Part shown: positions 60 through 51,766 of the stretch, one piece after another
Position numbering within the stretch: the stretch's first letter is position 1
Layout: each line of letters opens with the position of its first letter
Source: Alphaproteobacteria bacterium
GTDB taxonomy: Bacteria; Pseudomonadota; Alphaproteobacteria; Rickettsiales; SXRF01
Assembly (NCBI GenBank): GCA_039808985.1
Contig: JBDHUC010000007.1
Coordinates: 5,128 to 69,127, forward strand
Length of the DNA: 64,000 nt
Direction: 5' to 3'
Notes under the pieces: model-generated
Database searches by the model: none
The model's input: the letters and a program-made list of their open reading frames with translations, nothing else
What the model was told of the DNA's origin: nothing
Translations under genes and position numbers: made by a program

Positions 60-854
60 ATGCTCAATGTTTATAGCCGGGATATTAAAATTATGCGTTA
101 TATATATATATATTGTTTAATCTTACCCTTTGTTTCCATAGTCCCAGCCCCAGTCCTTGCACAGAGAGATGTACCTGCAGTACCAGAAGGAGTATGGAGC
201 TATGATGATGATTATACCGGCCAGGAGGACTGGGGCGCCGTAAAGGCATATGCGGTTTGTGAAAGTGGCACCCACCAGTCACCAATAAACATAACATATA
301 CAAAACCAGATAAGCTTCCGGCGCTTAATTTTAAATACAATAATGCCGAAGGCGTCTTAAAATTAGAGCCAAACAGATCATTTATTTTTTATGCTGTAAA
401 TGGTGGCAAATTAACAATCGGTGATGACACTTATTCATTACATTCCATTGAAATACATTCACCTAGCAGCCACAGGGTAAAAGATGGTTTTTATCCGGCA
501 GAAATCCACCTTATTCATAAGAATGAAAAAGGCGATATGCTTATAGTTGCCGAGTTTGTAAATATCGGCGCTGAGAACCCGGCTATAGCTAAGATGATTA
601 AGCAGATAACCGAAAGAAATCTGGATAAGTTCTCTGTAAATACTGACAGTCTTGTTTCTAATAACCAGTCATATTATGCATATGACGGCTCACTTCCATA
701 TCCTCCATGCACCGAGAATGCACATTGGAAAATAATGAAACATCCCATTACAATTTCAAGGGAGCAATTATCTTTCATAGCCAGAATTATCGGCCGCAAT
801 TCCAGGCTTCCGCAACCTGTTTATATGCGTGAGGTTTTAGAATCAACTCCTTAA
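60..854 (+). CDS. exported alpha-class carbonic anhydrase homologue with substituted catalytic residues (possible pseudo-enzyme)
   Basis: 264-aa ORF with a signal-like N-terminus (alternative start at 93, MRYIYIYCLILPF...PVLA/Q). Alpha-CA hallmarks are present: C-x-SG-x-x-QSPINI, YPAEIHLIH, GSLxxPPCTE. However, the QFHFH motif reads SIEIH and SLTTPP reads SLPYPP. Confidence 0.8.
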   Translation: MLNVYSRDIKIMRYIYIYCLILPFVSIVPAPVLAQRDVPAVPEGVWSYDDDYTGQEDWGAVKAYAVCESGTHQSPINITYTKPDKLPALNFKYNNAEGVLKLEPNRSFIFYAVNGGKLTIGDDTYSLHSIEIHSPSSHRVKDGFYPAEIHLIHKNEKGDMLIVAEFVNIGAENPAIAKMIKQITERNLDKFSVNTDSLVSNNQSYYAYDGSLPYPPCTENAHWKIMKHPITISREQLSFIARIIGRNSRLPQPVYMREVLESTP

Positions 855-1111
855 CTGTTTATTATAATTTGTTCCATTATGGGACAACACCCTACACAAC
901 CTATAATAGATTTACTATTGACTTTCCTATCACAATAAGAGATAAAGATTACCATGATAAATCAGGCAAATAACATAAAGAGAAGAGTGAATAAGTAGAG
1001 CATGAACAACCTATTACCTGACATTCAACTATGGAAAACCAAGCATAATGCCTTATACTTTGGACAAGTCAGGGCAAGTTGAAATAAGCATAATAATTTT
1101 AAGGATATAAT

Positions 1112-1414
1112 ATGGAATACACAGTAGCTTCTTCAAATTCAATTACCTCTATAAAACTTACAGGGCAATTTACATTTTCAGATACTAATAAATTCAAGAA
1201 TATCCTTGATTTGCTCTATGAAAACAGCATCAAAGTGATGACATTGGATTTTTCTGATGTCACCTTCATAGATTCATCATGTATGGGTATGCTCCTTTTG
1301 TTGCGTGATGAATGCCAGGCGCAAAACACCTCGCTTAATATACAATCACCTCAGGGGCAGGTAGAAAAAATTTTCCATATATCTAAATTCCACCAGCTTT
1401 TCTCAATAAACTAG
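1112..1414 (+). CDS. STAS-domain anti-sigma-factor antagonist (SpoIIAA/RsbV-like)
   Basis: 100 aa. Contains the conserved phospho-acceptor context DFSDVTFIDSSCMGMLL (DSS, Ser55). AAGGA lies 8 nt upstream of the ATG. Confidence 0.8.
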   Translation: MEYTVASSNSITSIKLTGQFTFSDTNKFKNILDLLYENSIKVMTLDFSDVTFIDSSCMGMLLLLRDECQAQNTSLNIQSPQGQVEKIFHISKFHQLFSIN

Positions 1415-1427
1415 CTGGTATGATTTT

Positions 1428-2174
1428 ATGCACGATGCTCTTGCTAAATATCTTCCCGATTACGGCAAAAATTTAGCTTATGAGCAGAAAAATTTTATAC
1501 ATAAACCATTCTTTTTCACTATAGCTGATTACCGGAAAACCAGCGAAGCATTAGAATCCGTTATTGCTTTACCACACAAAGCATTTATTGAAATCACCCC
1601 TTACAACAAGCATAAAAAATCATTTGAATATTTATTGGATGAGTCACCTGATTTTGCTTTATCACTTTCAACAATAAGCTGCCACACAAGCAGTTTGGCT
1701 CATATTTTTGCGAATTTACTGGATAAGCGCTTCGCATTAAATAGCAAAAAAAATACAGAAATCAAAATCTGTCTTCAGGAGGCAATAACCAATGCCATGT
1801 TGCATGGTAATTTAAAAATGCGTAGTGATTTCCATACTGTAAAAGGTTTATATGCTTATCATGAAGAAATAAATAAGCGCCTTATATTGGAGCATTACAG
1901 GTTTTCAACAATCAATATCCGGGCATGGAATAAGAAAGACTCTATAAAAATTGCAATAAGTGATGATGGCAGTGGTTTCAGAATTCCCACATATAAAGAA
2001 GATAATAAATCTCCAAATGGCCGCGGCTTAATTATTATACAAGAACTATCAGACAAAGCATGGGTAGAGAAAGGCTCAAAATCATTATTTATGGATTTTA
2101 AAAAATCAACTGGTAATCCACCCGCCGCCTATCAGCTTGTCACCGATATAAGCAACGCAGGCCTGCCCTGGTGA
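1428..2174 (+). CDS. anti-sigma regulatory factor-type Ser/Thr kinase (HATPase_c, SpoIIAB/RsbW-like) with N-terminal extension
   Basis: N-box [12 protein letters not shown]1 box ISDDGSGF, G2 box NGRGLIIIQ. An N-terminal stretch of about 110 aa has no recognisable family. The 3' end overlaps the convergent mnmA by 69 nt. Confidence 0.75.
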
Positions 2175-4592: not shown

Positions 4593-7076
4593 ATGATAAA
4601 AGCTAAAAGAAATATAGAAAAACAGGGTTTTTCTCTTGTTCAGGTCAGCATAATAATAGCTGTTGCGGGTATTATCCTGTCCTCGGTCATTCCTGGAGGT
4701 GAATCAAACAGCGATATTGAAAAAAACCGCATTACACGCGAAAAGATGGAAAAAATAGAGCTGGCGACGCAGGGATTTATGGCCGCAAAGTTAAGGCGCC
4801 CCTGCCCGGCAGACGGTACCCTGGCAAATACTAACATAAATTTTGGCAAGGAAGATACAAATTATGGGAGCTGTTCCAGTGCTAATTTTTTTACACAGTC
4901 AACTCCTGTAACTAAAACTGGCGCTACTACAACAGCATCATCTGCAGTAGCAACAACATTAAACAACACTACAGGCCTTGCTATAGGAATGCTGGTAACT
5001 GGCACCAATATTGCCGCAAACACCCATATATTGAGTGTTGATAGCGCCACGCAGATTACATTTGATAAATACGCCGCCGGAGCCAGCGGAACATTAACAT
5101 TTACTACAGTGGCGGCTGGTGTTGTACCAACTAAAACGCTTGGCCTTCCTGATGATTATATGCTGGATGGATATGGCAGGCGCATAGGATATATGGTTGA
5201 TATTCGCGCAACTGATAAAACAACCTGCCGTAACATGCAGGCAAAAAAAACGTCGGGTGCAATTCAAATAATGGATTCATGGGCGAATATAGGTTCATAT
5301 AACACCGACAATGTAATGTGGGCGCTAATATCCTATGGAAAAAATGGGCATGGTGCCTTTCCGACTCAGGGCTCAAGCCTGGCCAACAGGTTCGATAGTG
5401 GCGCTACTAACAAAGATGAGCGTACCAATGCATTTATAGATGTTACTACCACTGATTTTACAACGGCATATACCCCGTATTTAGTAAGGCATGAACCCAA
5501 CCTTACTTCAGGAAACAACTATTTTGATGACACAATATGGACGCAGGAATCCACCAAAAACACCTGTTGCACAGGAAAGATGTGCAATATAGGCACAAGG
5601 ATTGATGGCTCAGCTTCAGAAAATTTTGGCTGGTCTGTTACCAGCGGAGATATAAATGGTGATGGCATCCCCGATATAATAGCTTCAAAGTCCGGGGGAA
5701 CTAAAATCAGGGTTATATTTGGTAAGGCAACAGGCTGGACACCAACTTCAGCCATATCTCTGGCAACAGCCAACAGTTCAAGATTTTTTACTATAACCAA
5801 TGATTCTGCGCATCCTAATTTTGCAGGAAGCATTGCGGTTGGCGATATTAATGGGGATGGTTATGACGATATTGTGATAGGTTATGGCGATGGAAGCGGT
5901 AGCTATATAAAAATATTCTATGGCAGCGCATCTCCAGTTGATACAAATACCAGTTCACTCACTGACATTATAACTTTTCCATCAACCACAACCAGTGGAG
6001 CGCCATCCATATCCCTTGGAAAATTCGCGCATACAGCAAGCAAAGATATTCTGGCTCTTATAAAGACGGCTTCCGGCACAGGAAGTTCAACCGCATATGT
6101 TATTTATGGCGCGGCATCTTACGGTTCAAAAACGGCTGATACTACAAACTGGCTATTGGCGGCCAGTACCGGTTTTAAAATCAACACCACCTCACCAGGA
6201 AGGCTGGAAGCAATATCGGCAGCAGGGGCTGGTGATGTTAATAATGACAGCTATGACGAAATTATATTCAGCAATTATACTAATAATATAATGTATGTTT
6301 TATTTGGCGAGTCGGCAGCAAACTGGGATACTGATAAAACTACAGCAGCAACCGGGGCAACTCCGGATATTGTGAATATTGACACGCGGGTTAGCGCCGG
6401 TGTTACAGAAGCTGTTAAATTCACTAATGGTTCCAGCAATATTGGTCGATATACTATTGCTGTAGCAGATATGAATAACGATGGCTACAATGACATTATA
6501 TTCAACAACGGTAATTATTTTTATATTTATTATGGCAAAACTGCAGCAAGCTGGACATCACCAGACCTTTCAACAGCAGCAAATTATAATGGCACCAATG
6601 GTTTCAGGGTTGATTTAGTCAGTAATATACCAGCCTGGGTAACTTCTCCCATGACCAGCGCCATTGTAAGCGATGTAAATGGCGATGGGAAAAAAGACAT
6701 TATATCAATTGATTCAAACGGAGGGCCAAACAGCCTGGCAAATTCCGGGGCAAGCTTCATAATATTGCAGCCAAGCGGTGGCTGGAGCAGCGCATGGACA
6801 AGTGGTACACTTACATTATTTGGCCAGGTATTTGACTCAGCAGGAACAGGCTTGCCATTAAACAATGATGTAAGCAAAGGTTTTAGGATAGATGGTGATG
6901 CTGCCAGCCAGAATGTAAATGTAGAAACAGTTGCTGACATCAATAATGATGGAAAAAATGATTTAATAATAGGTTCCGAACATGCATTCAGCGATGCAGG
7001 CAGTATTCATATATTATTTGGCCGCACATTAGTGCCATGGGATACATCAACCAATGTAAGCATATTAAATTATTAG
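4593..7076 (+). CDS. prepilin-type N-terminal domain protein fused to a 7-blade FG-GAP (integrin-alpha-like) beta-propeller
   Basis: Leader MIKAKRNIEKQG is followed by FSLVQVSIIIAVAGIILSSVI. There are six DxNxDGxxD calcium loops. The track ORF starts at a GTG at 4551, but the ATG at 4593 gives a typical short basic leader. Confidence 0.7.
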   Translation: MIKAKRNIEKQGFSLVQVSIIIAVAGIILSSVIPGGESNSDIEKNRITREKMEKIELATQGFMAAKLRRPCPADGTLANTNINFGKEDTNYGSCSSANFFTQSTPVTKTGATTTASSAVATTLNNTTGLAIGMLVTGTNIAANTHILSVDSATQITFDKYAAGASGTLTFTTVAAGVVPTKTLGLPDDYMLDGYGRRIGYMVDIRATDKTTCRNMQAKKTSGAIQIMDSWANIGSYNTDNVMWALISYGKNGHGAFPTQGSSLANRFDSGATNKDERTNAFIDVTTTDFTTAYTPYLVRHEPNLTSGNNYFDDTIWTQESTKNTCCTGKMCNIGTRIDGSASENFGWSVTSGDINGDGIPDIIASKSGGTKIRVIFGKATGWTPTSAISLATANSSRFFTITNDSAHPNFAGSIAVGDINGDGYDDIVIGYGDGSGSYIKIFYGSASPVDTNTSSLTDIITFPSTTTSGAPSISLGKFAHTASKDILALIKTASGTGSSTAYVIYGAASYGSKTADTTNWLLAASTGFKINTTSPGRLEAISAAGAGDVNNDSYDEIIFSNYTNNIMYVLFGESAANWDTDKTTAATGATPDIVNIDTRVSAGVTEAVKFTNGSSNIGRYTIAVADMNNDGYNDIIFNNGNYFYIYYGKTAASWTSPDLSTAANYNGTNGFRVDLVSNIPAWVTSPMTSAIVSDVNGDGKKDIISIDSNGGPNSLANSGASFIILQPSGGWSSAWTSGTLTLFGQVFDSAGTGLPLNNDVSKGFRIDGDAASQNVNVETVADINNDGKNDLIIGSEHAFSDAGSIHILFGRTLVPWDTSTNVSILNY

Positions 7077-50668: not shown

Positions 50669-51766
50669 CTAATGCAATGTGCGTTGCTGCGCGTGGCTTT
50701 TCTCTGCTTCCAGGCGCTCAACAAAAGACCTGGCAGGAGCAGGATTATCATATTCAACCGTATTTTTTACAGGCTTTGCAGTTGTTTCAGCGTATGCTAC
50801 TTCCTGCTGTTTTATCTTATGCATACGTTCTCCTACACCGCGCAGAGCCGTACGTGCCTTACCAATAAGGCTTAAATTCTGTTTAACTGAATTAGGGGCA
50901 ACACCCGAATGCCTGCCTTCAACCATGAAGGCCAGTTCCGATACTTTAACCACCCCTGAATTTAGATTTTCGGTTATGTGCCTGCTTGGGACATATTGTT
51001 CCATGGCATCTGCAACTACGCGTTTTTCCTGAACCGATAGCTTATCATATTGCTTTCCATAATGGCTGACTACGAATTCGCCAAGCTCTTTATCGGCGCT
51101 TATAAAAACAGCCAGTACCTGTTCACGCCCCAGCACCCTGCCTTTTCTATGTTCCTTGGCTAATCCGGCGATGCGCTCATGAGTGGTTTCATTATTCAGA
51201 TTAAATATTTTTTTTGCAGCATTTTTTATTGGCACTTCAATAGCCCGGTGAATTGAATATCCTGCAAATGCCTTGATTAAGAACCCACCAACCCCGGTAA
51301 GTGACAGGCCAGCGGCAGATGTTCCTATGATGGCTGGTATGGCAGATATAATGGCAAGGGTTCCAAGAATCGAGGCAGCGGTAACCAGCATGCCAATATT
51401 ACGGCGCTTTTTAAGCTTCTGCAGCTCTTCTGCAATCGTTTTATTTGCAGCTATATCACGCCCTTCATCGCCCCTGGCGACAGCAAATGTGTCCTTATCT
51501 TTCAGCTTGTCTTTCGGCTTTCCTGTCTGCGCTGCAATTTCATCTTTATACATTTCGCGGAGCGAAGCCAGCTTACGCTGATATGCGGATTGGTTGATAA
51601 TAACACTTGCTGCTGCTGCAACACCCATACCAATTACTGAAGAAACACCTGCTGCAACGCCACCTGCGCCATTAGCAGCGGCATGTACAAGCTCCTTGGC
51701 GCCAAGGTTGCCTACCACGCCGCCTGCGCTTTCACTTAATGTTTCGTCTTCAGTCAATAATGACAC
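50669..51766 (-). CDS. hypothetical membrane protein with a bilobed hydrophobic hairpin
   Basis: No family recognised. A Gly/Ala-rich hydrophobic stretch plus a bilobed hydrophobic region of about 50 aa, followed by a hydrophilic domain of about 200 aa. AAGGAG lies 8 nt upstream of the GTG at 51766. The track ORF starts at a GTG at 51775. Confidence 0.6.
   Translation of the reverse strand: MSLLTEDETLSESAGGVVGNLGAKELVHAAANGAGGVAAGVSSVIGMGVAAAASVIINQSAYQRKLASLREMYKDEIAAQTGKPKDKLKDKDTFAVARGDEGRDIAANKTIAEELQKLKKRRNIGMLVTAASILGTLAIISAIPAIIGTSAAGLSLTGVGGFLIKAFAGYSIHRAIEVPIKNAAKKIFNLNNETTHERIAGLAKEHRKGRVLGREQVLAVFISADKELGEFVVSHYGKQYDKLSVQEKRVVADAMEQYVPSRHITENLNSGVVKVSELAFMVEGRHSGVAPNSVKQNLSLIGKARTALRGVGERMHKIKQQEVAYAETTAKPVKNTVEYDNPAPARSFVERLEAEKSHAQQRTLH

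Follow-up and report, generated by a model that had tools for sequence, protein, structure and literature searches.

Results

The DNA considered here (the window, i.e. the whole stretch of 64,000 nucleotides that was analysed) derives from an alphaproteobacterium of the order Rickettsiales and begins at position 5128 of its contig (G000:C7:5128; G, C and L numbers are our handles for genomes, contigs and loci). Close to its 5' end, at 60..854 on the forward strand, lies an open reading frame (ORF) of 264 amino acids plus stop, encoding a protein similar to the alpha-class carbonic anhydrases (alpha-CAs). The source organisms of the window and of its relatives are uncultured, and are represented by metagenome-assembled genomes (MAGs).

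In a Pfam profile search, residues 54-254 of this longest ORF matched the alpha-CA family PF00194 (Carb_anhydrase) with a score of 100 bits against a cut-off of 27 (E 2.2e-28), and an NCBIfam search of the protein returned no family model. The motifs quoted in the original prediction, which had been made by eye from the sequence, are all found in the translated ORF (QSPINI, TYSLHSIEIHSPSSHRVKDGFYPAEIHLIH, GSLPYPPCTE and RLPQP). The protein probably starts at ATG 93 (Met12) rather than at position 60, because the family consensus begins there, with an MR(F/Y) equivalent to Met12 at the start of all 38 homologues. A Sec-type signal peptide, MRYIYIYCLILPFVSIVPAPVLA, is predicted from this residue (93..161, +), with hydropathy values of 1.8-2.45 across residues 3-14 of the Met12 form; cleavage is likely after Ala34 (between VLA and QRD), a residue conserved at 92% in the subclade described below.

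The mature part, Gln35-Pro264 (162..851, +), is predicted to adopt the alpha-CA fold. An AlphaFold2 model based on 39 homologues reached a mean predicted local distance difference test (pLDDT) score of 82.6 (at least 90 in the core), and Foldseek matched it to bacterial alpha-CAs with template modelling (TM) scores of 0.83-0.86 (TM by target 0.85 to 4x5s, 5hpj and 4g7a; E 7e-22 to 4x5s). At the sequence level, the best matches among solved structures were 4x5s, 6im0, 4g7a, 1kop and 4ygf (E 3e-33 to 1.5e-24). The protein also contains Cys67 (258..260, +) and its partner Cys217 (708-710), i.e. the disulphide pair of bacterial alpha-CAs, which is invariant in all clades; in the original numbering (C66 and C216) both had been placed one residue too low. 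The Met12-Ala34 leader and the Cys67/Cys217 pair are the features of the bacterial periplasmic alpha-CA subgroup, and together they point to a periplasmic location.

An acidic N-terminal motif, WSYDDDYTGQEDWG, encoded at 146-184 (residues 30-42) and 195-233 (W46-G58), is invariant in the subclade, at the place where canonical CAs carry WxYxGxxGPxxWG. It lies in the least confident part of the modelled mature domain (pLDDT about 50-60), and may form a flexible lid or a site for a cation.

Catalysis by alpha-CAs depends on a zinc-bound hydroxide held by three histidines, on a gate formed by Glu106 and Thr199, and on the proton shuttle His64. The corresponding residues of the window protein were located in three alignments, namely phmmer pairwise alignments with four solved bacterial alpha-CAs, a MAFFT L-INS-i alignment including human CA II (which served only as the carrier of the standard numbering), and an alignment of 147 sequences, and all three agreed on every equivalence. 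The first zinc ligand, His94, is replaced by Glu131, and the second, His96, is retained as His133 in the segment Glu131-Ile-His133 (450..458, +; GAA at 450-452, CAC at 456-458). The third, His119, is retained as His150, together with Glu148, the equivalent of the second-shell residue Glu117 (501..509, +; CAC at 507-509); His107 is likewise present, as His138. The gate residue Glu106 has become Ser137 (468..470, +), at a position occupied by G/S/E/A across the subclade, and Thr199-Thr200 have become Pro213-Tyr214 (696..701, +; CCA at 696-698, TAT at 699-701).

The residues that surround the metal centre are changed as well. The position of the shuttle His64 is taken by Arg106 (375..377, +; AGA), and is variable across the clade (K/Q/R/N/Y); Gln92 is replaced by Ser129 and Asn67 by Ile, and at position 62, an Asn in CA II, the window protein has a Pro and most clade members have a gap. 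The CO2 pocket (positions 121, 143, 198, 207 and 209) remains hydrophobic, being composed of Ile, Ile, Leu, Ala (Val in orthologues) and Trp, with Ile162 in place of Val143. Compared with a competent alpha-CA (EC 4.2.1.1), the protein is therefore deficient in the His94/96/119 triad, in the Glu106-Thr199-Thr200 gate, and in the water wire of His64 and Asn62/Asn67/Gln92; among the residue sets compared, only the hydrophobic pocket is as expected. The substitutions read by eye in the original prediction (Glu131, encoded by GAA at 450-452, for His94; Ser for Gln92; Ser137 for Glu106; Pro/Tyr for Thr199/Thr200; and Arg, in the triplet PNR, for the shuttle His) were all borne out by the three alignments. 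A profile alignment with a His at every zinc-ligand position had been named as an observation that would speak against a pseudo-CA, and no alignment gave a His at position 94.

In human CA II, mutation of His94 to Asp or Glu leaves the zinc in place, lowering its affinity about 10^4-fold and kcat/Km about 10^3-fold. The T199P mutation reportedly causes a loss of about 3x10^3-fold, and a Pro at position 199 removes the backbone NH that orients the substrate. Judging from their titles in the PDB, such mutants were present among our fold matches (1cvc, CA II H94D; 1lg5 and 1lgd, T199P/C206S). These are laboratory single-site variants, which carry, one at a time, two substitutions like those of the window protein; in the latter, H94E and T199P are natural, conserved, and combined with the loss of Glu106, the loss of His64 and the V143I change, which narrows the pocket. 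Efficient CO2 hydration by the window protein appears unlikely on these grounds. Its 2-His-1-carboxylate site is of a kind that can chemically accommodate a divalent metal, and probably still holds one.

The substitutions are not peculiar to the window. A search of 5.8 billion proteins retrieved 36 homologues with 41-75% identity, two of which are labelled 'MAG: Rickettsiales bacterium'. Glu was found at position 94 in 36/36 and SLPYPPC in all but one. When relatives from the genomes were added, 38 distinct orthologues (41-79% identity) were obtained, which share the Glu-His-His ligand set, with Asn at 119 in two of them, and Pro199-Tyr200. Conservation among these 38 sequences, which we refer to as the subclade, amounts to 100% for Glu131, His133 and Pro213 and to 97% for Tyr214, and Glu131, His133, His150, Glu148, the pocket and Tyr214 are all conserved at 95-100%, which suggests a functional cavity. 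The positions that are at least 90% conserved, yet differ from the residue of canonical CAs, are P13Q, H94E, V143I, T199P, T200Y, P247L and N252Y, and those at 94, 143, 199 and 200 cluster in the active site.

The ratio of nonsynonymous to synonymous substitution rates (dN/dS) in four pairs was 0.08, 0.10, 0.17 and 0.24, indicating purifying selection, and the gene is present in 8/9 genomes of the window's genus. With 38 orthologues in which the substitutions are fixed, and with purifying selection acting on the gene, we conclude from these sequence comparisons that the gene encodes a maintained, altered protein of the CA fold, and is neither a sequencing error nor a pseudogene. The pseudo-CA reading put forward originally is thus supported by the alignments, by the orthologues, which, as it had proposed to check, do share Glu94 and Pro199-Tyr200, and by the dN/dS values.

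Other carbonic anhydrases occur in these genomes. A normal beta-CA is encoded in the genome of the window (G000:C15:17814-18275), where a search for a second alpha-CA found none. A congener, G004, possesses both the Glu94/Pro-Tyr (E/PY) form and a canonical alpha-CA with intact His94/96/119 and Glu106-Thr199-Thr200 (HHH/ETT), and since the two coexist, they do not appear redundant. The canonical gene of G004 (L042 7905-8648, on G004:C1) encodes Asn at position 64 and Tyr at position 107, and lies directly after msrB-msrA.

To place the subclade, relatives were sought with HMMER among 1.84 billion cluster representatives (a 50%-identity library). This gave 8,855 relatives, and 88 single-domain proteins among the top 150 matches were examined further. 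The nearest single-domain clusters (36-50% identity) are nearly all degenerate at positions 94 and/or 119, and the more distant ones are canonical (HHH/ETT). In the maximum-likelihood tree, the window protein falls within a clade of 84 sequences supported by an SH-like approximate likelihood-ratio test (SH-aLRT) value of 96, in which the three histidines are intact in 1/84. This clade is sister to the canonical bacterial alpha-CAs, and the Glu-His-His/Pro-Tyr subclade is terminal in it. Across the clade, His96 is nearly always retained, while position 94 is occupied by E/R/A/T/I/V/L/Q and position 119 by H/Q/E/R/N. On the tree, Glu94 came first and Tyr200 second (EHH/ETY sequences, e.g. P0062 and P0070), followed by Pro199 and then by the decay of Glu106 to G/S/A. 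Drift of Glu106 is to be expected at that stage, because Thr199, its only partner, had already become Pro.

Three members of the clade (L017, L026 and P0072) show a different arrangement, His-His-Gln with intact Glu106/Thr199/Thr200; the same three ligands are found in the Plasmodium eta-class CA. By analogy, they may be active eta-like enzymes, so that the clade would not be uniformly dead. The top scorers in the 50%-identity library (P0040-P0048, P0055 and P0060) are giant proteins of 860-3000 amino acids, containing 4-15 tandem CA-like domains.

As regards the genomic context, the CA-like gene is followed in the window by a 258-bp gap (855..1111), where close relatives have a gene for a soluble McpA-like protein with the signalling domain of methyl-accepting chemotaxis proteins (MCPs). 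A remnant of a decayed MCP gene was searched for in this gap and none was seen; comparison with the relatives' loci indicates that the window genome lost the MCP gene. Downstream of the gap are two co-directional genes that appear to be remnants of an ancestral cluster (see below), coding for a STAS anti-sigma-antagonist (1112..1414, +) and a HATPase_c_2 kinase of RsbW/SpoIIAB type with an N-terminal extension (1428..2174, +). This extension (window 1428-1750, about 85-110 amino acids) has no family match, and is kept in the relatives' homologues downstream of the STAS gene (28-45% identity over the full length). A promoter scan was uninformative (10 promoter-like sites versus 7.1 expected), and no terminator was found after the CA-like gene.

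In the window's genus, the order 3' of the CA-like gene is a soluble 366-amino-acid MCP-signal protein, STAS, RsbW-type kinase, and then the convergent mnmA and prfB. On the other side, the CA-like gene is divergent from the portal gene of a block of gene transfer agent (GTA) type, which comprises capsid, protease, YceI, cytochrome b561 and portal. The block is found upstream on the window's contig (L002 148-5098), with GTA/HK97-type capsid, prohead protease and portal genes and with a YceI-like and a cytochrome b561 gene between protease and portal, and its layout is kept in relatives whose CA-like proteins are 45-58% identical. The portal/GTA neighbourhood was considered as a meaningful context and discarded, being a derived rearrangement of the window's genus only: the G007 copy is located elsewhere, among folate and Mur-ligase-like genes, and in other genera the gene follows a different pair of genes.

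This pair, which we call PK717-TM147, lies upstream of the CA-like gene in most loci. PK717 is a 717-amino-acid protein with a sub-threshold protein-kinase match (Pkinase, 29.6 bits), HGN in place of HRD, and a C-terminal transmembrane helix; TM147 is a polytopic membrane protein of 147 amino acids. Searches of Pfam, NCBIfam and the PDB with the two proteins gave only the sub-threshold protein-kinase match, leaving TM147 with no family. The slot in which the CA-like and chemotaxis (che) genes are found usually begins with PK717. The window genome has its own PK717-TM147 pair outside the window, on a separate contig, C2 (G000:C2:48687-51314, with TM147 at 50871-51314; L039 4688-7287), and its only che genes form one unrelated cluster on C18.

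In four genomes of two genera (G013, G015, G028 and G035), the CA-like gene is located between cheW and a gene for an MCP with PAS and HAMP domains, in an operon with the order PK717, TM147, STAS, CheY, CheA, CheW, CA-like, PASx3-HAMP MCP, CheR, CheD, CheB, second MCP, STAS, anti-sigma-type kinase; a response-regulator-PP2C (RR-PP2C) phosphatase is encoded elsewhere in the same genomes. In a genome of another family (G045, locus L051), CheY-CheA-CheW are followed by the CA-like gene and then directly by the anti-sigma-type kinase, and in four further loci (L036, L044, L052 and L054) the CA-like gene is co-directional with MCP/STAS/HATPase/RR-PP2C genes. Among the products of the cluster, the CA-like protein alone is exported, and only PK717 and TM147 are membrane proteins. 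The complete operon, similar to the stage-1 F7 (Aer2-type) chemosensory clusters and ending in a partner-switching tail, can be seen at L058 1935-15888, and also in L046, L053, L057 and L064, within a Rickettsiales-like family. It is eroded to a varying degree by genus, and the window genome keeps only the STAS and kinase genes (1112-2174).

Gene order suggests that an Aer2/F7-type chemosensory and partner-switching cluster is the ancestral home of the family. The CA-like gene was found in 25/61 related genomes, and PK717 in 50/61. We considered the possibility that the CA-like gene and the STAS/kinase/MCP genes depend on each other, and rejected it, as each occurs without the other. It seems that many lineages are losing parts of the ancestral cluster independently of one another, and that the CA-like gene is often among what is left; this pattern speaks for a function that is of use by itself.

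Discussion

The closest parallels to the window protein are the carbonic anhydrase-related proteins (CARPs) of animals, whose pattern includes Arg at position 94 and Gln at position 119. The animal CARPs (CA VIII, X and XI) and the CA-like domains of receptor protein tyrosine phosphatases (RPTPs) gamma and zeta have the alpha-CA fold, in which at least one zinc His is replaced, as here, and the CARPs are kept by selection as non-catalytic proteins (PMC5437132, PMC6609565), to which the window clade would be analogous. If a CARP-type protein is defined operationally as an alpha-CA homologue that has lost at least one zinc His and is maintained by selection, the window protein qualifies (H94E in 38 sequences, dN/dS 0.08-0.24). 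It is an analogue rather than a member of the animal group: the clade branches beside the bacterial alpha-CAs, not with CA VIII/X/XI, and is therefore of independent origin, and its proteins are periplasmic (as predicted), with the bacterial disulphide. The wider bacterial clade repeats the CARP-like Arg at 94 and Gln at 119, whereas the window subclade retains three potential ligands, Glu-His-His, and has Thr199-Thr200 and Glu106 replaced as well. According to a paper of 2017, no CARPs had been reported outside animals and viruses, and our literature searches returned no description of bacterial alpha-CA pseudoenzymes, of this clade, or of a chemosensory operon containing a CA gene.

The differences from genuine alpha-CAs are of another kind. 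The enzymes of Sulfurihydrogenibium azorense (4x5s), Persephonella (6im0), Neisseria gonorrhoeae (1kop) and Helicobacter pylori (4ygf) share with the window protein the domain of about 220 amino acids, the signal peptide and the Cys pair, but have the three histidines, Glu106-Thr199-Thr200 and His64, of which the window protein retains only two of the histidines. The eta-class CA of Plasmodium is derived from the alpha class and has one non-His ligand (His-His-Gln), with the Glu106-Thr199 gate kept; in the window protein, it is the first ligand rather than the third that is altered, and the gate is lost.

The reading that we favour, to which we would assign a probability of roughly 0.6, is that the protein is a functional, Sec-exported, disulphide-bonded periplasmic protein of the alpha-CA fold, acting as a non-catalytic or very slow module for binding a small ligand. 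In the subclade, the zinc centre has been rebuilt and then frozen, with Glu-His-His for the three histidines, Pro-Tyr for Thr199-Thr200 and Ile for Val143. The Glu106 partner and the proton wire of His64, Asn62 and Asn67 have been given up, and the CO2 pocket and the second-shell Glu117 are retained. The proposed periplasmic binder may have CO2/bicarbonate, another anion or a metal as its ligand.

It should be noted that several observations weigh against this reading. In other subclades of the same clade, position 94 is occupied by Arg, Ala, Thr, Ile or Val, and position 119 by Gln or Glu; because of the sister subclades with non-ligand residues at 94, the function of the clade as a whole cannot need a metal. 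His119 is retained in 43/47 sequences with Glu or Asp at 94, against 15/41 of those with non-ligand residues (naive Fisher p 6e-8), an association resting on only 4 phylogenetically independent pairs; with so few independent contrasts, a dependence of His119 on a ligand-capable residue at 94 is suggestive only, and we do not rely on it. On the catalytic side, the eta class works with His-His-Gln, and a Glu-His-His zinc site can hydrate CO2 slowly. As for the signalling context, both MCPs of the cluster have no transmembrane segments, being soluble, hence there is no obvious periplasmic docking partner. Nor is the signalling link obligatory: in six genomes, PK717-TM147-CA-like abut mnmA without signalling genes, and one congener has its CA-like gene among folate genes. 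Conversely, the CA-like gene is missing from G009 (L062) and G012 (L063), where STAS and RR-PP2C genes are present (in L063 also an anti-sigma-type kinase), and from G021 (L064), where the che operon is complete.

A more specific version of the binding-module idea is that the pseudo-CA is the periplasmic sensory input of the ancestral cluster, binding CO2/bicarbonate or a related ligand and passing its presence on through TM147 and the tail-anchored PK717 to the soluble MCPs, CheA and the STAS/kinase/PP2C switch. The best comparison for the cluster is the stage-1 F7 (Aer2-type) cluster of gamma-proteobacteria, with its gas-sensing Aer2 receptor (Ortega et al., 2020, PMC7184735). The two have the same order of STAS, cheY, cheA, cheW, Aer2-like PAS-HAMP MCP, cheR, cheD, cheB, second MCP, STAS and serine phosphatase, and the published order is matched in G013, G015, G028 and G035, as judged by gene order. 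The cluster differs from the published one in that the CA-like gene occupies the place of a second cheW-like gene and that there is an additional anti-sigma-type kinase; moreover, its host is an alphaproteobacterium, and the window genome keeps only a fragment, namely STAS and kinase.

The position of the CA-like gene between cheW and the Aer2-like MCP gene, or after cheW in G045, its co-directionality with the switch genes in the four other loci, and its being the sole exported product beside two sole membrane proteins all agree with a sensory input, and a sensory role of the protein is plausible. The points against it are that the gene persists at 6 loci without any che or switch genes, that G021 has a che operon and no CA-like gene, that PK717 occurs in twice as many genomes as the CA-like gene, that the window genome is entirely without the che operon of the cluster, and that synteny within one bacterial family is weak evidence. 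Sensory input is therefore an explanation that we consider unlikely on balance, though the foremost among the alternatives, and we would give rather low odds to a dedicated sensor role. Equally doubtful is the explicit form of the proposal, in which a silenced alpha-CA with a CO2 pocket and a Glu-His-His site would sense CO2/bicarbonate (or another small ligand) for an Aer2/F7-type pathway, and would signal through a small membrane protein and a tail-anchored pseudokinase.

Somewhat less probable still is a metalloenzyme with a new chemistry, whose 2-His-1-carboxylate site and Tyr would bind Zn, Fe, Mn or Co and support an esterase/hydrolase, hydratase or redox reaction. Glu131, His133, His150 and Tyr214, together with Glu148, are conserved with a strictness (95-100%) that one would more typically expect of a catalytic site than of a decaying one. 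Judging from the title of PDB 1cvc, CA II can bind zinc with a carboxylate at 94, and the best fold matches include dioscorin, which has the CA fold and other activities. Such an enzyme is, however, difficult to reconcile with sister subclades that tolerate non-ligand residues at 94 and 119, with neighbouring genes that suggest no candidate substrate, and with the lack of a conserved general base or proton shuttle, positions 64 and 106 being variable.

The export predicted for the protein and the annotation of relatives as Rickettsiales MAGs could also recall a secreted interaction or adhesion module directed at a eukaryotic host, for which poxvirus D8 and the CA-like domains of RPTP gamma/zeta would be models; known pseudo-CAs do act as binding modules. 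A module of this kind appears quite improbable here, given that there is no secretion-system signal beyond Sec, that the clade is sister to bacterial rather than eukaryotic CAs, that the conserved changes are in the cavity and not on an obvious surface patch, and that the operon context is one of signalling rather than secretion. Finally, a carbonic anhydrase that has simply become slow, or that is suited to unusual conditions (e.g. a high pH), would fit the three potential ligands that remain, the intact CO2 pocket and the activity of the eta-CA with a non-His ligand, but is very improbable in view of the combination of five changes that are each deleterious (H94E, T199P, V143I, and the losses of E106 and of H64), of the free drift of the Glu106 and His64 positions, and of the presence of a beta-CA in the genome and of a canonical alpha-CA beside the E/PY type in G004.

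Textbook CARPs are animal proteins, and the bacterial alpha-CAs now appear to include a whole clade of CARP-like proteins, one subclade of which has a strictly conserved, rebuilt centre. The clade offers a natural experiment in the stepwise dismantling of a diffusion-limited enzyme, through the swap of a ligand, the loss of the gate and the decay of an orphaned partner. The binding module that we propose would be of interest to metalloprotein chemistry, being a scaffold that is small, stable and exported and that carries a 2-His-1-carboxylate site. It can also be named as a concrete candidate when components of F7/Aer2-type chemosensory and partner-switching systems are sought outside the cytoplasm; if the sensory version were true, the stage-1 F7 systems would gain an extracytoplasmic input. 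For the biology of the Rickettsiales-like bacteria themselves, a 'carbonic anhydrase family protein' annotated in their MAGs should not be counted as a capacity to hydrate CO2.

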